UHGV virus genome: UHGV-0293664
DNA: 64,000 nt
Strand: one strand, 5' to 3'
Origin: a virus
Below, one piece after another: positions 29,333-64,000 of this stretch (the stretch's first letter is position 1; the number at the start of each line of letters is the position of its first letter). The notes below the pieces were generated by a model. It did no database searches and was not told the DNA's origin. It worked only from the letters and a program-made list of their open reading frames with translations. The position numbers and the translations under genes were made by a program.

Positions 29333-30094
29333 TTAAAGTTCCATAAAGTTTTCTACGATCTCAATGAATGTTTTATCAGAGAAAGCATCGACCGCCCCGT
29401 TAAACCAAACTGGGATGCCGCGATCCTCATATTGGTAAATATCACTACGTGAAATGCCATTCTCCCCCAGCTGCTGTGAGTCGTATTTGTTAACGATCAG
29501 CAGTTTGGTTCCCTTATTGCAGGCAGGGAATAGCTCCCAGTTAAAATTGATAACTGTGTTGGAACACCCTACAAGGATAACCATATCATTACTCGTAAGA
29601 GAAGTCAACAGGTCATACATGTCTGTATACTTCGGAGCTACTTCTCCGAAGAACACCACATTAGGCTTAACCCAGGTATACTTTCCTGCATCTACCTCAG
29701 AGTATCCAATGTCCTTAATGACGTTACTTCCTTCATCGTCCTCATAGACTATTTCTGGCAAATACCCGTGGACATGTAAAATATCTTCATGTTTTACACC
29801 AGCACGCTCCAGCAAATCATCTACATTGGTGGTAAGGTTGATCACACGACCAGACCAGCGGGAATACCACTCAGCGATCCGAAGATGTGCAAGGTTAGGA
29901 TCAACACTGCCCAGAGCTACACGACGTGCATTGTAAAAGTCATGCACCTTATAGTAGTTCTTGGCAAAGGTGTGGATGTTGCACACCTCATCGATGCTGA
30001 AATTCTCCCACATTGCAGTGCTACCAGATCGGAAAGTGGGAATACCAGATTCAGCGCTCAAACCCGCACCGGAGATAATAATAAGTCGTCGCAT
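29333..30094 (-). CDS. Sir2-family (sirtuin-like) protein lacking the zinc ribbon
   Basis: GAGLSAESGIPTFR, TTNVDDLLERAG, LHVHGY (catalytic His), VVFFGE, ILVGCS all match sirtuin motifs; no CxxC pairs. Confidence 0.65.
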   Translation of the reverse strand: MRRLIIISGAGLSAESGIPTFRSGSTAMWENFSIDEVCNIHTFAKNYYKVHDFYNARRVALGSVDPNLAHLRIAEWYSRWSGRVINLTTNVDDLLERAGVKHEDILHVHGYLPEIVYEDDEGSNVIKDIGYSEVDAGKYTWVKPNVVFFGEVAPKYTDMYDLLTSLTSNDMVILVGCSNTVINFNWELFPACNKGTKLLIVNKYDSQQLGENGISRSDIYQYEDRGIPVWFNGAVDAFSDKTFIEIVENFMEL

Positions 30095-30102
30095 AAGTGT
30101 CC

Positions 30103-30453
30103 TCAGTAGATGTTTTGTTTAATATCTATTCCAAACTTTTTAAACGAGTCAGCTGCAAGCATGAATTTACGAGCCGCTGATGGGTTAGAAGTATGCACGA
30201 AAATCTTCACGTTGTCAACTACAGGAGGCTTACCAAATACAAATTTTTCCTCCAACATAGATAGGCAATCGTACCCTTCGAACACCTCTCCAAGGTCGTT
30301 GTCCATGTGCCACTCAGAAACGCGTCTGTAGAGCTTTCTATTATCGTTAATAAAATCCATAAACTCGGAGGAATTCTTTAGCCAAATAGCGTCTGGTAGC
30401 CCATAATTTGACGGATCTCTCAAGTCATCCAGCCACACAATCAACTTCTTCAT
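30103..30453 (-). CDS. hypothetical protein (116 aa)
   Basis: ORF between Sir2 and the ligase-like gene. Confidence 0.4.
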   Translation of the reverse strand: MKKLIVWLDDLRDPSNYGLPDAIWLKNSSEFMDFINDNRKLYRRVSEWHMDNDLGEVFEGYDCLSMLEEKFVFGKPPVVDNVKIFVHTSNPSAARKFMLAADSFKKFGIDIKQNIY

Positions 30454-31406
30454 TGCATATAGTTCTCGTTGTGGAAATAGTAATCAAGTATCTCACGGCG
30501 TTCCTGCTCTAGGAGGCAGTTCCATACATCCTCTGTGTAGTTGTTACGAATGAAGTTTACCATGCCGTAAAACTCTTCGTCAACACGTTTAAAGATATCA
30601 TCATCCCAAATCTTCCAAGCTTTACCTCTCATTACGGCCTTCCGTGCCAGATAGTATGGAGACTTAATCTTCAGCTGCAGATCATAAGGGTAGTAAGGCT
30701 TACGAATCATATACCCTTCACCTCTTGTTTCTGCAGCTAATTCTTTTGCATAACTGAACGGAATTTCACGCACAGTGTGAGGACGTTTTGCACCAAGGTA
30801 TTTGGCAATCCCGTCTAGAGCTGCTTCTGGTAGCATTATTCCAGAATCATTATATCTGCAACCTATCAAATATGCGCCATGATCTTCCTGAACAATATGC
30901 GGATCTGAAGGGTGACAAATTTCAAACATGAATGTCATGTTTTCATTACCCATAACTTTCTTGATAAGATCTAAATTACCACATTGCTCATGGATGGTTT
31001 CCTTTGCGAGGTCACAATATGGAGAATCAAGAGATCCGGTTGTTGAGAACAATAGTTCACCTTTATGAGATGATACCACACCAAGGAATCCGTTCTTTTT
31101 CTCTACCGCCGTCACAAGCTTATTGTCAGGCAGGTTGGTGGAGTTTTCTCCTAAGTTAAACACTTTTGTGAAGGGCCATGCCACAACATTTCCTTCATTA
31201 CCGACAACAATGCCTCGACACTCCAGTAAACGAGGGGACAAATGCCATAGATTGTTGTAAAATACTTTTCTGGCATATTTATAGATCTTTAACCCAAGAT
31301 CTGGGTAATATCTACTGGTTACAAGACCTTTGTCAACTAGGTCGTCTGCATTAAAATACTTCATCATACGTTCCTCATTTGTCATTTTGTTCCACAATCT
31401 TCCCAC
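30450..31406 (-). CDS. putative RNA ligase (covalent nucleotidyltransferase)
   Basis: Motif I EKKNGF (KxNG), motif IV EGYMIRK, motif V LKIKS; distinct from the DNA ligase at 26695. Confidence 0.5.
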   Translation of the reverse strand: MGRLWNKMTNEERMMKYFNADDLVDKGLVTSRYYPDLGLKIYKYARKVFYNNLWHLSPRLLECRGIVVGNEGNVVAWPFTKVFNLGENSTNLPDNKLVTAVEKKNGFLGVVSSHKGELLFSTTGSLDSPYCDLAKETIHEQCGNLDLIKKVMGNENMTFMFEICHPSDPHIVQEDHGAYLIGCRYNDSGIMLPEAALDGIAKYLGAKRPHTVREIPFSYAKELAAETRGEGYMIRKPYYPYDLQLKIKSPYYLARKAVMRGKAWKIWDDDIFKRVDEEFYGMVNFIRNNYTEDVWNCLLEQERREILDYYFHNENYMQ

Positions 31407-31428
31407 ATAAACAGCATCATGTCAACAC

Positions 31429-31457
31429 TTGAAATGTTCAAAAGAACACGATATACT
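31429..31457 (+). promoter_or_regulatory. sigma70-like promoter
   Basis: TTGAAA (31429-31434), 17-nt spacer, TATACT (31452-31457) upstream of the kinase gene. Confidence 0.4.
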
Positions 31458-31485
31458 ATCGTTGAAATTAAAACGGAGGATTACT

Positions 31486-31896
31486 ATGTCTAAAATGCTA
31501 TATATCGTGCGTGGTCTACCAGGGTCTGGCAAATCAACACTGGCAAATGCGCTATCTTTAGAAGGTCTGTATCCACATTTTGAGAACGACATGTTCTGGT
31601 ACGACGATGATGGAAATTACAACTGGGATGCAAGTAAAGTAACACTTGCAGCAAAATGGTGCAAAGATAACGTAGAAGATATGATGCGTATGGGATACGA
31701 CCGTATCGTGGTAAGTAATACGTTTACAAAAGAAAAATATGTGCAAGAATATATTGACATGGCGATCAGTCATGGGTATAGTTATACCGTGATCGTGGTT
31801 GAAAACCGCCATGGTAATAAAAGCATTCATGATGTTCCAGACAGGGTTGTGGATCGTATGGAACGCCAGCTTAAAAACTGCATTAAACTTAAATGA
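31486..31896 (+). CDS. polynucleotide 5'-kinase-like P-loop protein
   Basis: GLPGSGKSTLANAL P-loop and VVSNTFT resemble the T4 Pnk kinase domain; start placed at the SD-preceded ATG (31486), not the longer track ORF. Confidence 0.55.
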   Translation: MSKMLYIVRGLPGSGKSTLANALSLEGLYPHFENDMFWYDDDGNYNWDASKVTLAAKWCKDNVEDMMRMGYDRIVVSNTFTKEKYVQEYIDMAISHGYSYTVIVVENRHGNKSIHDVPDRVVDRMERQLKNCIKLK

Positions 31897-31903
31897 GGAA
31901 TGT

Positions 31904-32458
31904 ATGAAATACTTTGTAACAAGCGACACACACTTTCTCCACCAGCGGGTCATGGAGTTCGACTCATGTCAAAAACACAGATCTCAGTATGATCACAATC
32001 TTGACAGTATGAATGCGGGAATCATCACCAAGTGGAACTCTGTTGTGTCACCTGCAGACACTGTGTTCCACTTGGGAGATATTGCGTGCACTAATGATAA
32101 GAATATCAACAACTTACTTCCAGATATTCTAAATATGTTGAACGGACATATTATTCTTGTTCGTGGCAACCATGACACAAGGACGACTGTCAGAATTATG
32201 AAAGAGTTCGGTCATGAGGTTGTAGATTATTACGAGCTTCGCCACAACAAGAATTTGATCTGTATGAGCCATTACCAGTTTGCAAAGTGGAACAGAAAGC
32301 CTCACGGATCAGTCCAACTGTTCGGTCATGCTCACGGAACCACACAGCAGTTGTTTGGCAGGCAGTTTGATGTCGGTTGGGATGTGTGGGGGAGACTCTT
32401 ACCATTAGAAGAGGCATACCGTATTGCAATGAGTCTTGCTATTGACAGCGGGGAGTAA
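31904..32458 (+). CDS. calcineurin-like metallophosphoesterase
   Basis: SDTHF, HLGDIACTND, VRGNHD binuclear-metal motifs; start placed at ATG 31904. Confidence 0.6.
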   Translation: MKYFVTSDTHFLHQRVMEFDSCQKHRSQYDHNLDSMNAGIITKWNSVVSPADTVFHLGDIACTNDKNINNLLPDILNMLNGHIILVRGNHDTRTTVRIMKEFGHEVVDYYELRHNKNLICMSHYQFAKWNRKPHGSVQLFGHAHGTTQQLFGRQFDVGWDVWGRLLPLEEAYRIAMSLAIDSGE

Positions 32459-32505
32459 TCCCTGCTATTTTAAAGAAAATTGCCACACAAGGAGAATCAG
32501 GAGAT

Positions 32506-32856
32506 ATGAAAGATGGGGATAAGCTGCTATATCTTAAAGTCCCCCTTGAAATACTATCTATGTCAAAAGTTTTGAATGACACAACTGGGGAGGTTGTTGT
32601 TCTTGACTTATATGACAAGATCGTATACTGCTACCTGCACAACTGGTATAAGCTTGGAGGAAATTCACGCTTCACACCCAGCACAAGGAAAATTGCAGCA
32701 GATGTAGGGATAAAGAAAACAAAAGCAGCAGCGTGCGTTAAAACTTTAGAATGTGCAGGAGTGGTTGAAATATCCACACAAGGGAGAGGTAAAAGATGCA
32801 CATTTTCCAAAGTTTTGCCACCAGAAGAGGTTATTCGAATGTCAACAACTGATTAG
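32506..32856 (+). CDS. putative HTH DNA-binding protein
   Basis: STRKIAADVGIKKTKAAACVKTLECAGVV helix-turn-helix-like segment; immediately upstream of the iteron array. Confidence 0.4.
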   Translation: MKDGDKLLYLKVPLEILSMSKVLNDTTGEVVVLDLYDKIVYCYLHNWYKLGGNSRFTPSTRKIAADVGIKKTKAAACVKTLECAGVVEISTQGRGKRCTFSKVLPPEEVIRMSTTD

Positions 32857-32910
32857 ACCAGTAAAAACTTAAATATCTGTACTATAAGGATTCGTATGTT
32901 TTATGTTCGC

Positions 32911-33015
32911 CATGGAACAGACACTGTTAACTGTCCGTGATACGGACACTACTGTCCGTCACGCGGACACATCTGCCCGTAATACGGACACTAACTGTCC
33001 GTGATACGGACACAT
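32911..33015. repeat. tandem array of about 4 inverted-repeat units (GTCCGT-N4-ACGGAC), iteron-like
   Basis: Units at 32931-32950, 32951-32972, 32973-32993, 32994-33015 preceded by an ACAGACACTGT palindrome. Confidence 0.6.
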
Positions 33016-50456: not shown

Positions 50457-52793
50457 ATGGCTACAAACAAAATAGTTGCCACAACAGTCAACAAGATTGG
50501 CTTTGAGATAGAGAACTCCTCCTACAAAAAAGCTGTAGAGAAAATTCGCAGTATTGGGAGGGAGTTCAGGAAACTGGGCGAAGATTTTAACTCAGCCAAC
50601 CCCATGAGCAGATGGCAGGCGGTAGCTGTTAAAACCCAGCAGACAATGCAGCGGGTTGCCAGACAGCAATCTCAGGCAAATGCTAAACTGCACAGAGAGA
50701 GCGTAGCACAGGCCAAGAAAGAGGCTGCAGTAAGGGCTGCAATAGAACGTAGGGAGAATGCGAGACGTAAACAAGCTGTAGGTAATCTTACCGCTAAAAA
50801 TCCAGAAATGGCTAGGATGCGTAAGTTCTACCAGCAGCAAGCTAAAGAGGCCAAAAAGGCTGCCAAATCTGCACCAGTGTCTTACGGTGGTTATAAGGCA
50901 CCTAAGGCAAGAGTTTTGGCTAATGCCAAATCTTTCAAATATATCCCCGGTAACCCTAATATGGGTGGTGTGGCTTCCGACCCTAACCTTGTGAAAGCTC
51001 AGACAGCCGCTATGAATCGTTATCATAGACAGCTAAGAAGAGACAGTAAAGCTGGTATGGATAATAAGCTTATGTCGGATCGTGAGGCAAGGAGAACCCA
51101 CCTCTACAACTCCGCGATAAGACTTTCTGCCAAGTATGGGGCCGGATTCCGTGGAAGCTTGCCAGGATACTCAGAGTTAGAGTCCAGGTTTGCTCGCGGG
51201 GAGATGAAGAAGTCAACCTTTAACGCCCACCTGTCAGCGCTGCAGTCTGGGTTTAAAAGCGCCACCAGCCAAACGCTTACACTAGGTGATGCCATGAGAG
51301 ACCTACGTAGATCTGTTATTAATGCAACAGCTGCGTATACGGCTTTTTCTGGATTTGCTGCGGTTAACAGATCCGGTCACATGATGGAGGGGGCAAGTGC
51401 TGCTCTTACTGCTGTTACTGGAGATCCAAACAAAGCCAACAGTGAGGTTGCGTTTGTCCAGCAAGAGGCTATGCGTCTTGGTTTTGATCTCAAATCTGGT
51501 CTTCAAGGTTACGCCCAGATGTCGGTAAACGCCAAAAACCAGATGACAAATCAGGAAGTGCATGAGCTGTTTTCTGCATACTCACAGTATGCTGCTGCTT
51601 ATGGTGCCGATGAGGTAAAATACCAGCGCGGTATTATGGCTATCCAACAGATGCTAGGCAAGGGACAAGTAATGTCCGAAGAACTGAAGCAACAACTTGC
51701 TGAAGCATTGCCCGGTGCATACGAACCTTTTATCAAGGCCACCAAAGAGGCTTTTGGTCTTTCTGAACTCTCCATGGATCAGTTCATGGACATGATGAAG
51801 AAAGGTGAGGTTAAAACAGCCAAGATCATGAAGTATGTGGCTAAGTACATGAACGAGGCATCTGCAGCTGGTTATGAAAGAATGCAGAAGTCTAACGTGC
51901 TGGCAGAAAACAGACTGAAAACCTTCATCGAACTGACTCGTCAGAAACTGTTCACCCGTTGGTCCGACGAACTAACAGAGTTCTATTATACACTAATCCG
52001 CACTGGTGAGACTCTGCAATTTGTGTGGGATGCCTCTGGTGATTTTGTTAGCGGGTTTGTGAGAGGCCTTAACTGGGTAGTTGGTGAACTAAACAACACC
52101 ATAGTCAAGATCCGCATGTTTTTCCTTGAATGGGGGATTAAATGGGGATTCATAACAGCTAAGACGAAGGAATATTCTGAAGAGCTTCATGACACCTTTA
52201 GTTATGCTAAATGGGCAGGGTTTGCTGCTGCCATTATGCTGGTAGTGAACGCCCTAACAAAAGGTTTTGTCATGGCATCCATGCTTGTAAAAACCTTTAA
52301 ATTCCTTAACTCTCTAAGGGGTGCAGCCGGAGCAGCGGGTGCCGCTACTACAGAAGGATCTGGTGGTGGTGCTCCGGCAGGAAAAGGGGGAGGTGGCCTC
52401 AAGACACCTGGTGGCAAAGTTGGTCTGCTCGGTAAGTTGGGCATTATCGGTACAATACTAAGCGCCGGGGAATTGTTTAATGACCGTTACAACCCACTAA
52501 GTGAAAGAAATCAGCAGCTGGATACCATCAGTGATATGATTCGTAAAGATATCATATCTGGAGGTAACGGGTTTGTTAATCCTTTGGACACCTTACCGGG
52601 AGGGACTCTTCCGTTACCAGGTGGTCCTGGTTTTGCTTCTCAATTAAGAACTATGGAAATGCTGCCTTTAGAGATCAGTGATGGGAAAATCACGATTTCA
52701 ATAGATGAGGGTGAGTTTAACAAAATATTTGATGCAAAACTGGAGTGGGAGAACAATAAAGATATCAACTTCATGTCTACCGACCTTTGGTAA
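50457..52793 (+). CDS. tail tape measure protein
   Basis: 778 aa, long helical Ala/Lys/Gln-rich regions, Gly-rich stretch, located right after the chaperone pair. Confidence 0.7.
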   Translation: MATNKIVATTVNKIGFEIENSSYKKAVEKIRSIGREFRKLGEDFNSANPMSRWQAVAVKTQQTMQRVARQQSQANAKLHRESVAQAKKEAAVRAAIERRENARRKQAVGNLTAKNPEMARMRKFYQQQAKEAKKAAKSAPVSYGGYKAPKARVLANAKSFKYIPGNPNMGGVASDPNLVKAQTAAMNRYHRQLRRDSKAGMDNKLMSDREARRTHLYNSAIRLSAKYGAGFRGSLPGYSELESRFARGEMKKSTFNAHLSALQSGFKSATSQTLTLGDAMRDLRRSVINATAAYTAFSGFAAVNRSGHMMEGASAALTAVTGDPNKANSEVAFVQQEAMRLGFDLKSGLQGYAQMSVNAKNQMTNQEVHELFSAYSQYAAAYGADEVKYQRGIMAIQQMLGKGQVMSEELKQQLAEALPGAYEPFIKATKEAFGLSELSMDQFMDMMKKGEVKTAKIMKYVAKYMNEASAAGYERMQKSNVLAENRLKTFIELTRQKLFTRWSDELTEFYYTLIRTGETLQFVWDASGDFVSGFVRGLNWVVGELNNTIVKIRMFFLEWGIKWGFITAKTKEYSEELHDTFSYAKWAGFAAAIMLVVNALTKGFVMASMLVKTFKFLNSLRGAAGAAGAATTEGSGGGAPAGKGGGGLKTPGGKVGLLGKLGIIGTILSAGELFNDRYNPLSERNQQLDTISDMIRKDIISGGNGFVNPLDTLPGGTLPLPGGPGFASQLRTMEMLPLEISDGKITISIDEGEFNKIFDAKLEWENNKDINFMSTDLW

Positions 52794-55867: not shown

Positions 55868-56584
55868 ATGGCTACGCTTTATAGTGATATATTGATGGAC
55901 CCACAGACAGGCGATTTGGCGATAGACAAAGGTCTTGAGTTGATAGATTCAAACCAGGTAAGTCTGCGCCAGCGCTTGTGGATGAGGTTTAATACGTGGA
56001 AGGGGAGCTGGTACTTTGACGAGTTGTTTGGCTTCCCTTATATGGACTTTCTCAGTAAGAAGGTCATGAAGACTGTTCTTGATAACAAGATTATGGAAGT
56101 GGCAAGACAAGAGCCGGATGTGCTAAACATCATAAACTTCCAGTCTACCATGGATCGAAGATCGAGAACATACCAAGCGTTCTTTGAGGTTGTTACCAAA
56201 GAGAACGAGATTGTAAGACTGGCTTTCGTAGGTCTTGATCAGTTCACCTACCCACAGCCTGATTCTGGGACAACCTCTCTCTGTGATGATGAGGGTTGGA
56301 TTAAGTGGGCCAATAAACTGTACTATCTGATCAACTTCAGATTGCCTAGAACCGGAGATGCCACATGGTGGAACCAGTATGCTGGTCCCGAGATGGAAAA
56401 CCCGATCCCTGTAGGCTCTCTGTTGACTCAGGATAAAGATCTGCTGATGACTGAGGCAGAACAAACTATTAACCGCAATACCTGGACGCTTGCTCCAGAT
56501 GAGCGCGAATACTCTGGTGTTATTGCTACCTCCAACGATGAGGCTATTGCCAACCAGTCTGGTCGTGCTATTGATGTTAACTAA
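55868..56584 (+). CDS. hypothetical baseplate protein (238 aa)
   Basis: ORF in baseplate module. Confidence 0.4.
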   Translation: MATLYSDILMDPQTGDLAIDKGLELIDSNQVSLRQRLWMRFNTWKGSWYFDELFGFPYMDFLSKKVMKTVLDNKIMEVARQEPDVLNIINFQSTMDRRSRTYQAFFEVVTKENEIVRLAFVGLDQFTYPQPDSGTTSLCDDEGWIKWANKLYYLINFRLPRTGDATWWNQYAGPEMENPIPVGSLLTQDKDLLMTEAEQTINRNTWTLAPDEREYSGVIATSNDEAIANQSGRAIDVN

Positions 56585-56593
56585 GGAGAAATC

Positions 56594-57262
56594 ATGGCTG
56601 TAGCTTATCCTACAATACCAATTCCAGATCTTGAAGATGCAGAAACAGTCCTGAGTGATGACTTCTTGGTTGTCAACCAGACTGATGGGACAAGAAAGGC
56701 TAAGATTGACGATGTTGTCAACGATCTTAGTATTACTAAGATAGTCTATTTCACAGAGGGTGGTTATCTTAAGAGCAAGAAGGACTTTGCTTATGACCCA
56801 GAAACTAAACGCTACTATACGTGGAACGGGGATTATCCTAAAATAATCCTCCCAGACTCCACTGTAGATGGTGCTGGGGGTGTGTCTGCAAATGCCTGGT
56901 CTGTTTTTGGTGAGCTTGCTGCAACTTCTTCTGGCAGAATAGTTGATTACGGATCTATCGGTGGTCAGCTTGATATGGATCTTGAAGTTGCGGATACCTT
57001 TAAGGTTCGACTAACTTCAAATACCACAATCTCTTTTGAAAATCAAACAGAAGGTCTTGAAGGGGTGGCGAGAACTATAACCGTATGCATTACTCAGACC
57101 TCTGGCGGCAACAAAGTCTATTGGCCTGGTAATGTTAAATGGTCCTACGGAAGAGATCCTATCCTAACATTTACAGCTGGTGCAACAGATATTTTTAAGT
57201 TGGAAACCTACGACAACGGGTTAACTTGGTACGGGGCACTGATCATCGCAGGAGCTATCTAA
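56594..57262 (+). CDS. tail-fibre N-terminal-domain protein (222 aa)
   Basis: N-terminal ~90 aa homologous to the N-terminus of the 1269-aa fibre (DDFLVVNQTDGTRKAKIDDVV / DDYLVVQQPDLTRRVKIGDVV; EGGYL...DFAY / EGGKL...DFAY). Confidence 0.45.
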   Translation: MAVAYPTIPIPDLEDAETVLSDDFLVVNQTDGTRKAKIDDVVNDLSITKIVYFTEGGYLKSKKDFAYDPETKRYYTWNGDYPKIILPDSTVDGAGGVSANAWSVFGELAATSSGRIVDYGSIGGQLDMDLEVADTFKVRLTSNTTISFENQTEGLEGVARTITVCITQTSGGNKVYWPGNVKWSYGRDPILTFTAGATDIFKLETYDNGLTWYGALIIAGAI

Positions 57263-57263
57263 G

Positions 57264-59861
57264 ATGCGTATTCAACACAACATTGATAACGTATTTCAGA
57301 TGATTGAGGGGCACAGGAAGTGCCTCGATAACAACACAGGTATTACCAACACACCTACACAAAATAAGCTAGTAAACCCTGATGGTCTTATAGCTGCAGG
57401 GTGGGCAGGTAATAAGATAAATAATGATTGGGCAATGCATGAGTCCCAAGCTGTGTTGATTCTGGGATACATTGAAGCATACAGGGCATCGAAAAGCGAT
57501 TTCTATCTGGATAGGGCAAAAGATGCTTGGGAAGCTTACAATAGTCATCTTCTGGGTGCATATGCTGTAGAAAGTAAAATGCAAAGATTGTCCCACCACC
57601 CTCTGTCCACAGACGGGGTTCCATCACATGGTGGGTTTAAAGATGTGGTGGTGTCTTTTACTAATGGTAGAGGAAAAATCCCAGCTGGATCTCCGACATG
57701 GGGAGAATACCTGGACAAGGCATTCCAAGCATATAACGGTGTGTTAGGAAGAAACACTGTAGACTCTGATGTTTACGGCGGCACAGATGCTAACCCAGAT
57801 TGGACAACATCCGGATTAAGTTGGTGGGTTGAGTGGTATATAGCATGGGATGGTAACCGCTATTGGGCTAACGGTAGCATAGCCGACAGTGGTCATACGT
57901 CTGTAGAGTTCGGCACAATCCAATTACAAGATAAGGGTGTTACAGGCAGCCACAAGGTGACCTATTGTGTAAGATTACCTCAAGAGCAGGGTGGATCGGT
58001 GATACCTGCAGGATCCCCTGTAATTGTAAATCCTATAAACGTGGTTGCAGATAACCAGGCCCCAGAGTTGGACGGGGAAGAGATGTGGTGTGACGCTTGT
58101 TATCAACTCTACACCTTGACAGGTGAGGAAAAGTATTACACCGCGTTTAAACAGTCTTACAACAAGTTGCTTAATTTCAGTGATATAAACGCCTACGATA
58201 AGCTGTTTAGAAAGACCACGTTGATTAAGGCACCGTTCACAGATGGTACTTGCCTAGTTGCAGGGACAGTTCCTGTCATGAGCAGGGACAGTGACGGGTA
58301 TATCAATTTTAGAATGAACGCACGCCAGCCTTGTGAAATAATTCAAAAAGGGACTACATACAAAATAGGCAGAGATGCTGAAATTGTTATGAATTTCGGA
58401 GGAGAAGGGGTTCTGTTCCAGCCACATTTCATCCTTAATGATGGCAACAATAACAAAAAACAGTACAGGATAGGGGTTCCTTTTGGAGGGGCAGAGGTAA
58501 CAGAAATAGTTGCCAAGGTTACTGATTTCGTAGAGGTGGTTGGTAAAGACGGTAATCCGTATCTCTTACCTAAAGAGGAAAACATTGCCGTAAGCGGTGG
58601 TGCTAGTGTTAGTATGCAGTATGATACCGACATTTACAACCACTCTGACAACTTCACCCGCTGTAATATAGCAAGAGGCAAAGTAACTTTCAATTTTGGA
58701 AGAGAGATTTCTTTAAACTCAGTAACTTATCGATCAGATGATGAGATGGTAAGGGTCAAATTTCTTGACAAAGACAGGTGGTTATGGTATGCTGATCTAT
58801 ATGCCACTAATGGACAATGGATAACAGAAACTCTTACTCTAGGAGATTTCAAACTAGATCCGACACAACCTCATCACACCGAAGAAGAGATTAAACCTTT
58901 CTTTGCTAATCCTAAGGGGCTCACCTCTGTAGATTTCAGCCTAAGCGACAGGCAGATAGGTAATGGCTTGTTTGATCTATATTGCGTCAACACACTACCG
59001 CAATTTTATATTGCAGATAGGGATGCCTATCTAATCTGGTTTAGCGTATGGATGGCAAGCAAGACAGAATCAACCGCTAAGGTTGGCGATTGCTATGTCA
59101 GAAACTACAAGCAAGGTGCATACAGGCACACACCGGGTGTGTTCCCTGCCGGAAAGGTGATAGATAAGGAAAACTATCTCTTAGAGGAAAAGCCAAATTG
59201 GCCCTACCCTGGCATGCAATACCCAGCAGTCTACTGCATGGGTGCAGAAAACATAGATCGCCATAGATTGTCAAATACAACAGGCTTTCTGTATGACGCT
59301 CAAGTCTGGTATAATAATACATTTAAGACAGAGGGTCCAGTTGCCTCACGTTATGTATGGCAAAGAGGTAATGAAGGGTTGACTGGTTGGTGGGAGATGG
59401 TAGATAACTCTAAACTCCAGTCAAGATCTTTTGTTGCTGCGTGCCGCACAATATATGAGCTCAAGAAACATAAAGAACCTGTTGATGAAAGACTGTTCCT
59501 GTTCTGCCAGAAATGGGCATGGTTCCTCAACAGATTCCAGTCATCTCATTCAGGAAATCTGCCTACAGACTTTAACACCTCTGGGGGATATTCTTATCAA
59601 GACAGGGGAGACAGGATGTGGGTGGTAGGTGAATGGCTTGCAGGTTGCTGCTGGCTAGGTCTGTGCGGGTATTCAGAGACAATACCTCAAATAGATATTG
59701 TTGTAGAAGCCTGTGTGAAGCTACTGCAAAAGCACCACTTCATTAATGGGGATAATGTTTTAAACGGCTGCTGGGCAGTTTCTGATCCGGTAGGCTATCA
59801 CTCTGGCGAAATCCTTCGCGGTCTGGGCCTCTATGCTCAATACCGTGGATTGTACCTTTAA
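57264..59861 (+). CDS. large tail-associated protein (865 aa), putative tailspike/fibre or baseplate component
   Basis: Long Trp/Tyr/Gly/Asn-rich ORF in the fibre region, followed by a terminator. Confidence 0.45.
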   Translation: MRIQHNIDNVFQMIEGHRKCLDNNTGITNTPTQNKLVNPDGLIAAGWAGNKINNDWAMHESQAVLILGYIEAYRASKSDFYLDRAKDAWEAYNSHLLGAYAVESKMQRLSHHPLSTDGVPSHGGFKDVVVSFTNGRGKIPAGSPTWGEYLDKAFQAYNGVLGRNTVDSDVYGGTDANPDWTTSGLSWWVEWYIAWDGNRYWANGSIADSGHTSVEFGTIQLQDKGVTGSHKVTYCVRLPQEQGGSVIPAGSPVIVNPINVVADNQAPELDGEEMWCDACYQLYTLTGEEKYYTAFKQSYNKLLNFSDINAYDKLFRKTTLIKAPFTDGTCLVAGTVPVMSRDSDGYINFRMNARQPCEIIQKGTTYKIGRDAEIVMNFGGEGVLFQPHFILNDGNNNKKQYRIGVPFGGAEVTEIVAKVTDFVEVVGKDGNPYLLPKEENIAVSGGASVSMQYDTDIYNHSDNFTRCNIARGKVTFNFGREISLNSVTYRSDDEMVRVKFLDKDRWLWYADLYATNGQWITETLTLGDFKLDPTQPHHTEEEIKPFFANPKGLTSVDFSLSDRQIGNGLFDLYCVNTLPQFYIADRDAYLIWFSVWMASKTESTAKVGDCYVRNYKQGAYRHTPGVFPAGKVIDKENYLLEEKPNWPYPGMQYPAVYCMGAENIDRHRLSNTTGFLYDAQVWYNNTFKTEGPVASRYVWQRGNEGLTGWWEMVDNSKLQSRSFVAACRTIYELKKHKEPVDERLFLFCQKWAWFLNRFQSSHSGNLPTDFNTSGGYSYQDRGDRMWVVGEWLAGCCWLGLCGYSETIPQIDIVVEACVKLLQKHHFINGDNVLNGCWAVSDPVGYHSGEILRGLGLYAQYRGLYL

Positions 59862-59865
59862 CATA

Positions 59866-59885
59866 GGGGGCTGTTTGCCCCCTTT
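59866..59885 (+). terminator. rho-independent terminator
   Basis: GGGGGC-tgtttg-GCCCCC hairpin then TTT. Confidence 0.5.
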
Positions 59886-59896
59886 CAGGAGAAAGA

Positions 59897-62800
59897 ATGG
59901 CTGATATTAAAGTTGTCAGAATTGAATCTCTTCCTGCCACTACCGCAGTGACAGAGGATGATTACCTGGTTGTTCAGCAACCAGACCTGACCCGTCGTGT
60001 AAAAATTGGCGATGTTGTCCATGTGGATGGGACTGTTTCTCATGTAATCTCCTTTAAGGAAGGTGGTAAGTTAAACGGCCCAATGGATTTTGCCTACTTC
60101 GAAGAGGAAGACCTCTACCTGCGTTGGAAAGGCGAATTTCCGCACACTGTTCCTGCACTGTCTTCACCGTACGCTGATGGTGGGATTACTGACGCTGCAT
60201 GGATGGTATATACTGACCCGTCCTTAAGGGAGGAGCTGGAATCTACCATTGGCGCATCTATGATCATGACAGCCGAAGGGCAGTCTGTCCAGGATGTAAT
60301 GGATGTTACTGTTCAGACAGCTAACGATGCTAAAGCACTTGCACAGCGTGTAGATTTTGGTACAGTGCACACTGTAGGCGATGTTATTCACCTTGATAAC
60401 TTTGTTGGCCCTGCAGTTATTGAAGAGGGAAGAACTACCAACTACCCTTCTGTAGCAGCTGGTGAAAAATTTCTGAACGGTGTGGTATCTCGTCGTGATA
60501 CTACAACTGTTGATGGTATTTTCCGTGGTGCTACCTCAGGAGCCATGTATACCATTGCAGTAACCAACGGTGTAGCAACAACAAAAAGAATAGCACTTCG
60601 TGATGAATTTAAACGCCTAGAGGCAAACAACCCAACAAGAACAGTTATCCGTGCTGGAGATGATTTAAACACAGCAGGGTACTTGCAGCTTGATGCAACA
60701 GGCCGTTGGGGTATGTGGAACCAACAAACAGCTTCGTGGCAACCTCTTGCTATAGAGCAAGGCGGTACAGGGGCCAGAGATGTAGCAGGTGCACGCATTA
60801 ACTTAGGGGCTTTCTATAAGCAACGTGCAGCCCTTGAGCCAAATTTCAATATCAATAACTTGACTGGTAATCAGGATGGTGTATACTACCAGCCGATGAC
60901 TGCTTATGCAACTGAGGCAAATGGTTACCCTGCAGGTTCTGGTGCTGGTCACTTGATTGTTTGGCAGAACAATGCTAACGGCGGTACAGGTTGTCGTCAG
61001 GAATACTATCCATTCTCTAACGTAGATGTTTGGTATTTGAGAACCTATCAGGCCAACACAAATCAGTGGACTGCATGGCAGCCGATGGTCAGACCTCGTA
61101 ATGATGATACCTTTAGAACGCACATCGGTCTTGGGTCCAGAAATTCCCCTACCTTCGGGCACCTTTACCTGTCTCAAAGCTCTGCTGATGTTAAGTCGGC
61201 ATCAGGTATTGTTAACGGGGACAAATATAGTGCTGACGGTGTCCTTGAGCATGGGTATAGGATCTACTCTGAGGTAAGAAACGACAATAAAGCTTGGTTG
61301 ACAATCCACCTGCACAAAGGTGCAAAAGGATCTGAAACTCATAGATATTTAGGTTTCCGCGAAGACGGTGTATTAGTCTGCCCTAAATATATGCAAGTTG
61401 GGGATCTTACTGGTCAGCTGACAAACTGGGGGCTTGGAGAGTGGATTCGTAGTTCAGGGGCAGAAAGAGGTTTCTGGGGGTCCAAGAAAGCCGCCAAGAT
61501 GGTCATCTGGGATGGCGGGATGGACGAATCCGGTAACGGCAGTTTGGAATGGGGTGTTTATAACAACCGGAAGGCCAAGTGGGAACCTTTACCTCACGCC
61601 GCAGGTGGTACCGGGGCTACAACTTTAGCAGATGCTCAGAATCTGTTCAAAGTTCCTATAGCAGCAGGTGTAAAAGACTTATTAACACTGCCAAGAACCG
61701 CAGGGATGGAAGATGGGAAATACTACCCAATTATCGTTAGAACAGATCCGTACTATGCTCCAGCAACTGGCACTGATATTACTATAGTCACCAGGTCTTC
61801 ATCTGGAAATGACCCTATGAACTGTGCGACCTTACAGTGTCACTATAGAACTGGTGGTTGGACAGACAGAGGAGACTCTTTCTACGGGGTAGTAAATTTC
61901 TACCAGAATGAAAAAGCAATTCTTGGGATGGTTGCTCCAACAAGGGGTAAACAAGAATATGTTGCTTTCTATGCAGAGGCGCGTGCTTTCCCTGTCAGCA
62001 TATACGCAAGTAGAAATGTTGTCGAGGTGTTTACCAGAGAGCAAGATTACCAGGTTGGCTCTGTAACAAACAATCAGGACGGTGTTAAATTCGTTGCACC
62101 TCTCCAGTCAGCAGATTTGAATCTTGCTGTTCTTGGAGATAACAACACCAATACCAGACCTATTGTTGACTTCAAAGGTACCTCTGGGTTCTACACTGGC
62201 GGCGGCACACAGTGGCACTATATAGGCACTGCTGAACGCTATGCTGTGATGAGCAAAATGAATATGCCAAAAGTTGAGCTGTGGGCAGATGGTCTTGACT
62301 ATTTGTGCTACGGCAGCTCTAGAAAGGCGTTATTCTCTAATGCAGGATTCCAGTGTGCCTCCGATGGGACAGAGGATCTGACTAACGGTACGTTTACCTC
62401 TAAATGCGGTAATGGTGCTGGTCTCAAAGGTCGGGCAGAGTTCAGATCTACTCCGGAAGCGGGTCAAGTTATTGTTCGCGATGTTGTAGGCACAGCTCAT
62501 AGATTCTACAACTTCAACAAAGATGGTACTTTCTCAGCACCTGGTGGTTTTGTATGCCACACTGGTGGAGACTGGAACAACCAGTTTGGGAATAATAATC
62601 CGTCCAAAATAATGGCTGGCAACGTCAACGGACCTGAAGGTTCAATGGTTGTTGGCGGGGTGTCTGTAGCATTTTCTGGAAATTATGCTTTCCAGATAGC
62701 TGGTCGCCTTGATAGGTTGTATACCAGATCTATCGAGGGTGGTGCTCACAGACCGTGGAACAAGATCTTCTCACACAGAGGTGTAGGTCTTGGTTCTACA

Positions 62801-63706
62801 GACCTAAACACTTACGATGGTACTTGTGAGGGCATCTACGACCAACCGCTTGATGCCAACTCGACATCTGAAAGACATTACCCAGCACCGTACGCTGGTA
62901 CTCTGATTGTTTACCAGAACAATGCAAACAATCCGAAAGGATGCGTACAGGAGTACATCACACGTTTTGGTGACAGATACACGCGTGTTGGTAACATGGA
63001 TAGAACTGGTTCCACTTACATGTGGGAAGTTTGGCGGCATGATTCTGGTAAAGCTATCCAGTTACGCCCGAATCGCAATGTTGATGAAACAGATAAAGAG
63101 CTGTGCATTCATGTTGGTGGTTCTGAAAATCCCAGCAACAACGGTAACTTACCTAAGGATGATGCTGTACTCCATTATTGGGGTAACGGCAGCACAGGGG
63201 ATCGTCCAAACGTGTTAGAGTTTAAGGTTCTTGACGAGTCTCAAGCAAATTGGGTATGGCATTGCGGTACCTTGCCGGATAAATCAAGATATCTTTCTGT
63301 AAACGGTGCTGTGAATTGCGCATCTGTCAATCAGAGTTCTGACAGGGACCTGAAAGATAACATAGCTGTTATTCCTGATGCATTAGAAGCTATTCGGAAG
63401 ATGAAGGGCTATACTTACACTCTTAAAGAGAACGGTATGCCTTATGCAGGTGTTATAGCACAAGAGGTGCTTGAAGCGCTGCCGGAAGCAGTTAGCTCTT
63501 TCGTGCAAAGAAAGGAAATCCCAAACCCTGATCAAGATGGAACCCCTTTGATAACAGAGGAAAGATTCTACAGCGTGGATTACGCAGCCGTAACAGGCTT
63601 GCTTGTCCAGGTTTGCAGGGAACAGGACGATAAAATAACCGCCCTTGAGGAGCAGGTTAAAAAATTGACAGAGGTTGTTACTGGGTTGCAAGAGAAACTG
63701 AAGTAA
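59897..63706 (+). CDS. tail fibre protein with C-terminal intramolecular chaperone (peptidase S74-like) domain
   Basis: 1269 aa; C-terminus SDRDLKDNIAV...GVIAQEV...LPEAV...YSVDYAAVTGLLVQV then coiled coil (ITALEEQVKKLTEVV); internal repeated GGTGA and LIV-QNNAN-GC-QEY modules. Confidence 0.7.
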   Translation: MADIKVVRIESLPATTAVTEDDYLVVQQPDLTRRVKIGDVVHVDGTVSHVISFKEGGKLNGPMDFAYFEEEDLYLRWKGEFPHTVPALSSPYADGGITDAAWMVYTDPSLREELESTIGASMIMTAEGQSVQDVMDVTVQTANDAKALAQRVDFGTVHTVGDVIHLDNFVGPAVIEEGRTTNYPSVAAGEKFLNGVVSRRDTTTVDGIFRGATSGAMYTIAVTNGVATTKRIALRDEFKRLEANNPTRTVIRAGDDLNTAGYLQLDATGRWGMWNQQTASWQPLAIEQGGTGARDVAGARINLGAFYKQRAALEPNFNINNLTGNQDGVYYQPMTAYATEANGYPAGSGAGHLIVWQNNANGGTGCRQEYYPFSNVDVWYLRTYQANTNQWTAWQPMVRPRNDDTFRTHIGLGSRNSPTFGHLYLSQSSADVKSASGIVNGDKYSADGVLEHGYRIYSEVRNDNKAWLTIHLHKGAKGSETHRYLGFREDGVLVCPKYMQVGDLTGQLTNWGLGEWIRSSGAERGFWGSKKAAKMVIWDGGMDESGNGSLEWGVYNNRKAKWEPLPHAAGGTGATTLADAQNLFKVPIAAGVKDLLTLPRTAGMEDGKYYPIIVRTDPYYAPATGTDITIVTRSSSGNDPMNCATLQCHYRTGGWTDRGDSFYGVVNFYQNEKAILGMVAPTRGKQEYVAFYAEARAFPVSIYASRNVVEVFTREQDYQVGSVTNNQDGVKFVAPLQSADLNLAVLGDNNTNTRPIVDFKGTSGFYTGGGTQWHYIGTAERYAVMSKMNMPKVELWADGLDYLCYGSSRKALFSNAGFQCASDGTEDLTNGTFTSKCGNGAGLKGRAEFRSTPEAGQVIVRDVVGTAHRFYNFNKDGTFSAPGGFVCHTGGDWNNQFGNNNPSKIMAGNVNGPEGSMVVGGVSVAFSGNYAFQIAGRLDRLYTRSIEGGAHRPWNKIFSHRGVGLGSTDLNTYDGTCEGIYDQPLDANSTSERHYPAPYAGTLIVYQNNANNPKGCVQEYITRFGDRYTRVGNMDRTGSTYMWEVWRHDSGKAIQLRPNRNVDETDKELCIHVGGSENPSNNGNLPKDDAVLHYWGNGSTGDRPNVLEFKVLDESQANWVWHCGTLPDKSRYLSVNGAVNCASVNQSSDRDLKDNIAVIPDALEAIRKMKGYTYTLKENGMPYAGVIAQEVLEALPEAVSSFVQRKEIPNPDQDGTPLITEERFYSVDYAAVTGLLVQVCREQDDKITALEEQVKKLTEVVTGLQEKLK

Positions 63707-63713
63707 CTGTTTT

Positions 63714-63740
63714 GCCCTCGCTTCGGCGGGGGCTTTTTGT
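63714..63740 (+). terminator. rho-independent terminator
   Basis: GCCCTCGC-ttcg-GCGGGGGC hairpin then TTTTT. Confidence 0.6.
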
Positions 63741-63774: not shown

Positions 63775-63806
63775 AGCTATCATGATTGTTTAACCGGGAG
63801 GCACAA

Positions 63807-64000
63807 TGTTTTTATGGGAAAGGCCTAGATACCTTCCAGATATTAGATTGGAGCTGCTGGCAGATATTGTTACGTTTAAAAGTCCGTTTACAGGTAAAAC
63901 GCAAAAAGTAACCTATGCCACACCTAACTGGAAAGGCACTTTGACGGTTTCCAATATCAGTGAGTCACAGTTGCTAGAGCTTAAGAGCTTTGTCGATCAG
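63807..64000 (+). CDS. hypothetical protein, 5' fragment (runs off window end)
   Basis: ATG after GGAGG; open to the end of the window. Confidence 0.35.

Follow-up and report, generated by a model that had tools for sequence, protein, structure and literature searches.

A bipartite N-terminal module shared by two tail proteins of an rV5-like Vequintavirus, with a probable role in virion docking

Two tail proteins of very different length, encoded on either side of a third one in the UHGV virus genome UHGV-0293664, begin with similar sequences, and the question raised by this locus is what a common N-terminus does on proteins whose distal parts differ. The whole stretch of DNA analysed (64,000 nucleotides (nt), hereafter the window) belongs to an rV5-like Vequintavirus, a myophage of Escherichia coli. 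Three consecutive genes are concerned, all on the forward strand, as are the domains and hairpins described below: those of a 222-amino-acid (aa) protein (p222, orthologue of rV5 gp43, 56594..57262), of an 865-aa protein (p865, orthologue of gp42, 57264..59861) and of a 1269-aa fibre (p1269, orthologue of gp41, 59897..63706). According to the rV5 paper (PMC3606486), gp41, gp42 and gp43 were all detected in virions by mass spectrometry. From the sequence of the window, an original prediction had noticed that the first ~90 residues of p222 and p1269 align with about 40% identity, and had proposed a common attachment domain carrying different distal parts, for example on two receptor-binding proteins at one baseplate site or in a modular exchange cassette.

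Chance similarity of the two N-termini was ruled out by alignment statistics. In a BLASTP comparison, p222 aa 8-105 aligned with p1269 aa 7-105 with 38 identities on 99 positions (38%), 55% positives, one gap and an E-value of 4e-18, so that the length and identity estimated by eye were accurate. The Smith-Waterman score of the two proteins (174) was compared with that of shuffled sequences (mean 27.4, standard deviation 4.8), which gave a z-score of 30.6, none of 2000 shuffles scoring as high; the similarity, for which the original prediction had asked a formal statistic, is significant by both methods. Each half of the module was significantly similar when shuffled singly (z = 10.9 for aa 1-45 and z = 17.9 for aa 46-110), and outside the module p222 and p1269 are unrelated (z = 1.5). 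Exact nucleotide words common to both coding regions do not exceed 10 nt, which rules out a recent DNA duplication or gene conversion and therefore indicates an old duplication, kept up at the protein level. No third copy of the module was found in the window using tblastn and a six-frame hidden Markov model (HMM) scan, nor by HMM scan among all 22 tail-locus proteins (including products of genes past the window end) of Escherichia phage RudolfGeigy (BASEL Bas52), a 98.5%-identical relative used as comparison phage; in both cases p222 and p1269 were the only carriers.

The module, of about 105 residues, is bipartite. Its first part (aa 1-45, hereafter the anchor; 56594..56728 in p222) is the better conserved half, with 20 of 44 positions identical between p222 and p1269 as against 20 of 60 for the second part, and follows the motif M..(I/V)x(I/V)xxLPxAxxVxxxD(Y/F)LVVxQxDxT(R/K)K... 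The second part (aa ~46-105; 56729..56908 in p222) is Pfam family PF18668, Tail_spike_N, described as 'TSP1/Gp66 N-terminal domain', whose gathering threshold of 25 bits is reached by both p222 (42.4 bits, aa 51-105) and p1269 (38.6 bits, aa 46-103). In p1269 the module extends over 59897..60211, with the anchor (aa 1-45) at 59897-60031 and the PF18668 part (aa 46-105) at 60032-60211.

Among PDB sequences, the PF18668 half matched gp13 of phage Sf11, TSP1, TSP3 and TSP4 of phage CBA120, and gp63.1 of phage G7C. The anchor belongs to no Pfam family according to a Pfam scan of p222 and p1269, and a profile of 13 anchor sequences had no match among PDB sequences. The attachment domain of the T7 gp17 type (Pfam PF03906) is absent from p222 and p1269. 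A likeness of the rV5 gp43 N-terminus to the P22 tailspike head-binding domain (PDB 2VNL; HHpred probability 96.3) is reported by Kropinski et al. 2013 (PMC3606486); P22 was not listed among the matches of a phmmer search against PDB. Structure prediction of the N-terminus, which had been proposed as a check, yielded no confident model of the module: the AlphaFold2 monomer had a predicted local distance difference test score (pLDDT) below 50 over aa 1-62, and the anchor was predicted, with low confidence, as a beta-beta-alpha element.

With a profile built from the two modules of the window, 531 matches at E ≤ 1e-3 were obtained among 1.84 billion representative proteins. When the full module (profile positions 1-110) was matched, it was always located at residues 1-110 of the target protein. 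These targets measure 214 to 1599 aa, and the parts found behind the module are S74 chaperones, Collar domains and right-handed beta-helices; module-headed proteins also end in colanidase-type or endosialidase parts. Nearly all of the other ~500 matches were to the PF18668 half only, in an internal position and behind different N-termini.

In phages of the rV5, 4MG, phi92 and AV124 types, between two and five different tail proteins start with the anchor. Seunavirus 4MG keeps both genes, the long protein being a 712-aa 'colanic acid degrading' (colanidase-type) protein placed behind the anchor. In phi92, the alignment shows gp140 (157 aa) to be p222 minus precisely the PF18668 segment, the third gene slot is occupied by an endosialidase (EndoN92, gp143) that starts with the anchor alone, and gp151 carries PF18668 and no anchor. 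Five consecutive anchor-headed tail open reading frames (ORFs) were found in Escherichia phage AV124 (Mydovirus; L003, 2764-13231), four of which are annotated (743, 745, 746 and 747), the fifth corresponding to WPK37750. PF18668 is present in only one of these five, the parts behind the anchor comprise, among others, a GDSL esterase, a SASA esterase and a fibre with an S74 chaperone, and one of the genes lies upstream, not downstream, of the sheath-initiator gene.

Within the genus Vequintavirus, the N-module is 99-100% conserved, that of p222 being 99% identical in ~95 records and the first 200 aa of p1269 being 100% identical to those of RudolfGeigy. A separate observation concerns metagenomic relatives, in which a 690-aa beta-helix tailspike (P0048) and a p222-type protein (P0014) have N-modules that share 70% identity, as against only 38% between p222 and p1269. 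This closeness suggests either a recent transfer of the module between protein types or co-evolution of the two copies within one genome.

As regards the distal parts, p1269 (PHROG 6578, 'tail fiber protein') is, we infer, a long lateral tail fibre with an exchangeable tip. In a comparison with RudolfGeigy by bins of 100 aa, the two bins covering aa ~900-1100 (62594..63196) were 68% and 49% identical, as against 95-100% elsewhere. The divergence is thus confined to ~200 aa, presumed to be the receptor-binding tip, directly before a conserved Peptidase_S74 intramolecular chaperone (aa 1148-1199, 63338..63493; Pfam score of 52 bits for a cutoff of 22). Many Vequintavirus genomes align over nt 1-2868 of the p1269 gene only. 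Database alleles sharing the N-terminus of p1269 measure 617, 827, 988, 1481 and 1599 aa, which implies large deletions or insertions in the shaft; no internal repeats were detected in p1269 by self-BLAST. Modular exchange is thereby supported at two levels, since tips vary within the genus and whole distal parts differ behind the module between genera. The proposal of a common attachment module with different distal parts, or of an exchange cassette, fits all of the comparative evidence, provided that the single domain originally envisaged is replaced by a module of two parts, one of which is PF18668.

The distal part of p222 (PHROG 7760, 'tail fiber protein') is a C-terminal domain (C-domain, aa ~112-222, 56927..57259), a putative beta-sandwich with an XD1-like fold, of the kind of T4 gp9 and CBA120 TSP4. 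TSP4-N, CpaA, StcE and a gp9-type protein are given by Chao et al. (PMC8825819) as XD1 neighbours of TSP4 and T4 gp9/gp10, and the match of the C-domain to Pa223 agrees with a remark of the phi92 authors on gp140. Homologues of p222 fall into two length classes, of ~222 aa with PF18668 and of ~157 aa without it. Conservation of the C-domain in the genus is 97-100% among the matches listed, and identity is at least 95% in 118 of 526 records; that of phi92 gp140 is 42% identical to that of p222.

The p865 gene starts 2 nt after the p222 stop (57262/57264). Its product (PHROG 2871, 'tail protein') has no N-terminal anchor, and matched neither a Pfam family nor a PDB sequence. The AlphaFold2 model of p865 is moderate (pLDDT 64) and consists of paired helices interrupted by beta domains; since, in addition, a Foldseek search with this moderate model gave template modelling (TM) scores of at most 0.14, the labels 'glycosidase' and 'sialidase domain' given in GenBank records are unconfirmed. 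The p865 homologue of phage ISAO8 has a match to GH76 that is sub-threshold only. HHpred hints of hydrolase activity are reported for a 'tail protein' (ORF17) in the paper on phage S144, and this protein appears to belong to the p865 family.

In 4MG, in phi92 (gp141) and in the metagenomic relative L006, the p222 orthologue is directly followed by a p865 orthologue with 33-35% identity; L006 has the pair and no third, anchor-bearing gene at that position. Using tblastn, p865 homologues were detected in 525 phage records and the C-domain in 526, and the counts by genus, considering the genus given in the record name, are essentially equal (p865 and C-domain respectively: Escherichia, 243 and 240; Salmonella, 101 and 101; Vibrio, 62 and 60; Erwinia, 33 and 33; Campylobacter, 23 and 23; Cronobacter, 12 and 12; Aeromonas, 7 and 7; Klebsiella, 6 and 6). 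The gene encoding the C-domain lies immediately upstream of the p865 gene, with overlapping or abutting stop and start, in the window, 4MG, phi92, L006, BP63, ISAO8 and A24, and coordinates on the same accession place it directly upstream in OP177727, PP496723, PP854833, MG969411, ON286975 and OR062530.

In three of these phages, which are unrelated (Rosemountvirus BP63, the T7-like podophage ISAO8 and A24 of the Grimontviridae), the p865 homologue is overlapped by the small gene upstream of it, whose product lacks the anchor and has the C-domain at its end (E = 4e-27, 1e-23 and 2e-30, respectively). The upstream protein of ISAO8 instead begins with Pfam Phage_T7_tail (PF03906, 35.4 bits), the virion-attachment domain of the T7 fibre; the N-terminal position can therefore be considered as an interchangeable attachment slot. 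The simplest reading is that the p222 C-domain and p865 form a two-gene cassette, in which the N-terminus of the small protein is a plug suited to the local virion; in this phage, the plug is the module shared with p1269. The suggestion that p222 is a second receptor-binding protein is accordingly the part of the original prediction that probably does not hold, the linkage of C-domain and p865 favouring p222 as an adaptor for p865.

Such a near-perfect co-distribution, with an invariant and coupled upstream position across myo-, podo- and jumbo phages, would be unexpected if p222 and p1269 were independent receptor binders, that is, if p222 were an autonomous mini-fibre binding a glycan by its C-terminal beta-sandwich, and if p865 were mounted otherwise or were an assembly or accessory factor for p222. 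This explanation can draw on the occurrence of the C-domain as the last part of small fibres that are otherwise unrelated (P0037-P0040) and at the end of several PHROGs labelled 'tail fiber protein', as well as on glycan binding by the XD1-type fold in CpaA and StcE. The C-domain is, however, highly conserved in the genus, whereas the tip of p1269 is variable, and the 930-aa partner in ISAO8 has no attachment domain of its own. The evidence weighs against independent receptor binding by p222, which we regard as unlikely.

The overall reading, which we consider as probable though well short of certain, is that both proteins are attached to the baseplate through the module, p222 carrying p865 and p1269 being a fibre with an exchangeable tip. 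The ~105-residue N-terminus would be a virion-docking module specific to this phage lineage, in which the ~45-residue anchor would plug a trimeric tail protein into a socket at the baseplate periphery. By analogy with the cryo-electron microscopy (cryo-EM) structure of phi92, this socket would probably be a Baseplate_J-type wedge protein, encoded just past the window. PF18668 would be a dispensable second part, a domain such as makes up the 'head' in many tailspikes. On one side, p1269 would be a long lateral fibre that exchanges its tip from strain to strain and folds with the help of the C-terminal S74 chaperone. On the other, p222 would be a stubby adaptor whose XD1-like C-domain, the candidate p865-binding domain, would hold p865, a protein devoid of an anchor and possibly active on glycans. 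A single plug design would in this way mount two different host-recognition devices, evolution having presumably placed new distal parts behind the same plug.

The evidence also weighs against two other explanations for the module. In the first, which we hold to be improbable, the N-modules would bind each other or take part in one branched complex, as do TSP1-4 of CBA120, one protein (for example p222 with p865) docking on the baseplate and the other (p1269) docking on that protein. Homologous anchors on p222 and p1269 argue rather for homologous sockets, and no docking domain of the XD2/XD3 type was found in p222, p865 and p1269 (by Pfam and PDB sequence searches) or in the other baseplate proteins (by Pfam only). 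AV124 has five anchor ORFs, but the C-domain and p865 are both missing from the 18-kb tail region searched, therefore the partner of the anchor is neither of them. In favour of branching, fibre II of phi92 joins the base of fibre I and not the wedge in cryo-EM, the PF18668 'head' domains touch partner tailspikes in the CBA120 model (PMC8825819), and p222 would carry a fold that is present in the branching protein TSP4. Lastly, a module that merely nucleates trimerisation or folding, or that is left over from a common ancestor without docking specificity, is very improbable: TSP4 requires its first 12 residues for trimerisation (PMC8825819) and the failure of AlphaFold2 on the monomer is expected for an obligate oligomer, but p1269 already has, at its C-terminus, an S74 chaperone dedicated to trimerisation, no other part of either protein is as conserved as the module, which always stands at the extreme N-terminus, and elsewhere in the p222 family it is replaced by known attachment domains, e.g. 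Phage_T7_tail.

A further candidate for the docking partner, p865 acting as a common hub for both anchors, was ruled out by the same tail region of AV124, which has five anchor ORFs and no p865.

Beyond docking on the baseplate by the module, a wider reading in four parts can be proposed, which, taken jointly, is tentative and stands somewhat below even chances. The anchor would be an undescribed and structurally unsolved universal plug of rV5, phi92 and phAPEC8-like myophages; any carrier of the anchor would be mounted on the wedge, with two carriers in rV5, 4MG and phi92 and five in AV124; p222-p865 (gp140-gp141 in phi92) would be the lateral fibre of phi92 to which no gene is assigned, corresponding to fibre II or to the arm of fibre I; and the XD1-like adaptor with its p865-type cargo would be a mobile cassette among myo-, podo- and jumbo phages, in which only the plug of the adaptor is swapped. 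With regard to the third part, the phi92 study (2026 cryo-EM) tried gp15, gp140, gp150 and gp151 singly as candidates for fibre II and never mentions gp141, so that a gp140-gp141 complex is a fresh candidate.

The interval 56594-60250 is 98.6% identical to the corresponding region of Escherichia phages bov10K2 and RudolfGeigy, and 90-99% identical to that of ~120 Vequintavirus records. It is located in the tail/baseplate operon, the gene order of which was taken from the ORFs of the window and from the RudolfGeigy annotation: the gene for the tape measure protein (50457-52793) is followed, in order, by those for the tube initiator, plug, hub, spike and sheath-initiator-like protein (55868-56584), and then by those for p222, p865 and p1269. 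A GC-rich hairpin read directly from the sequence (GGGGGC-TGTTT-GCCCCC followed by TTT, 59866..59882) occupies the 35-nt gap between the p865 and p1269 genes, directly 5' of the p1269 Shine-Dalgarno sequence. It was not called by the terminator scan because its T-run is short; partial termination or processing at this hairpin could part the p222-p865 unit from the fibre gene. Another hairpin, resembling an intrinsic terminator, is found 3' of p1269 (63714..63733), with an 8-bp stem including 7 GC pairs, followed by TTTTTGTTTG.

Three further observations were made on this genome and its relatives. A tail-tip gene set of the siphophage style is found in this myophage directly after p1269 (window ~63806-64000 and past its end; L001:21216-26623), comprising genes for a Dit-like 'distal tail protein' (PHROG 1302), a tail protein, a DUF6950 protein and a 1279-aa gpJ-like protein that bears Phage_Tail_Tip and Ig_J domains; it looks like a lambda-type tip module reused for one lateral fibre. 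The GC skew and the AT skew both change sign near 31-32 kb (window ~30000-33000), as would fit a changeover between blocks of genes transcribed in divergent directions. Finally, about 18-23 GenBank records named 'Campylobacter phage' (MG0656xx; host C. jejuni) show 98-99% identity with rV5-like phages of E. coli over 56594-63706. The C. jejuni host label of these records looks doubtful, and the Campylobacter preparations may have contained E. coli phages, as contaminants or through co-isolation.

Phages of the rV5 and phi92 types infect an unusually wide range of hosts and find use in phage therapy and biocontrol, and their 'Swiss army knife' lateral fibres are still without gene assignment. 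The main value of the present analysis is a concrete and testable assignment for these fibres: a common plug gives a simple rule for picking the gene products that are mounted on the baseplate, and p222-p865 (gp140-gp141 in phi92) is nominated as a candidate for the missing lateral-fibre density. The junction after aa ~45 or aa ~105 would be a natural splice point for the engineering of new receptor-binding parts. In the literature searched, we found no description of the ~45-aa anchor as an element common to two to five tail proteins in phages of the rV5, 4MG, phi92 and AV124 types, and no report of its lack of a solved structure or of the cassette formed by the adaptor and p865. Already known are the PF18668 half, which is curated in Pfam and widespread, and the genome itself, which is close to those of sequenced phages. 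As the combination of a conserved N-terminal attachment part and variable distal parts is also well established (CBA120 TSP1-4, G7C gp63.1/gp66, the K1E/K1-5 adaptors and the BASEL loci), the advance is specific and not conceptual.

The closest known system is phi92 (Justusliebigvirus), whose gp140, gp141 and gp143 are orthologues of the three proteins, encoded in the same order after the sheath-initiator gene, gp141 being 35% identical to p865. It differs by the endosialidase in the fibre slot, by an extra deacetylase gene (gp142) in between, and by the lack of PF18668 in gp140 and gp143. The shared N-terminus is not mentioned in the phi92 cryo-EM paper, nor in the available sections of the rV5 paper (PMC3606486). 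In CBA120 (TSP1-4) and G7C (gp63.1/gp66), several host-recognition proteins are likewise mounted via N-terminal modules; by its position, PF18668 would be the counterpart of the D2 'head' domain in CBA120 TSP1, TSP3 and TSP4 and in G7C gp63.1, and an XD1-type fold is also probable in p222. Docking relies there on T4 gp10-like XD2/XD3 domains and D1 heads, whereas here an unrelated anchor of ~45 aa is found, and the XD1-like domain stands at the C-terminus of a 222-aa protein with a large partner that is not a tailspike.

The podophages K1E and K1-5, to whose fibres the phi92 authors compare fibre I, offer the example of a small virion-attached adaptor that carries a large enzyme, an endosialidase, without attachment domain, and a similar architecture is seen in ISAO8, in which a T7-type fibre N-domain is fused to the p222 C-domain and followed by the 930-aa p865 homologue. 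The likeness to K1E and K1-5 considered here is one of architecture; the partner in the present phage belongs to the p865 family and is neither a beta-helix tailspike nor an endosialidase. The best PDB sequence match to both p222 and p1269, over the PF18668 region, is gp13 of the Shigella siphophage Sf11 (PDB 9OCC). In the Sf11 tailspike in situ, N-terminal residues 4-59 touch the tail and the PF18668-like segment (aa 68-124) does not, a tail contact upstream of this segment that fits the arrangement of anchor plus head proposed here; the Sf11 anchor differs in being an alpha-helical bundle on the distal tail protein, and has no sequence similarity to the present one. The lateral tail fibre genes of Drexlerviridae and T5-like phages described in the BASEL papers are alike in that only the far N-terminus is conserved, which was read as the virion attachment site, but these are alleles of one gene across genomes, whereas the locus studied here has two paralogous modules on different proteins of one genome.

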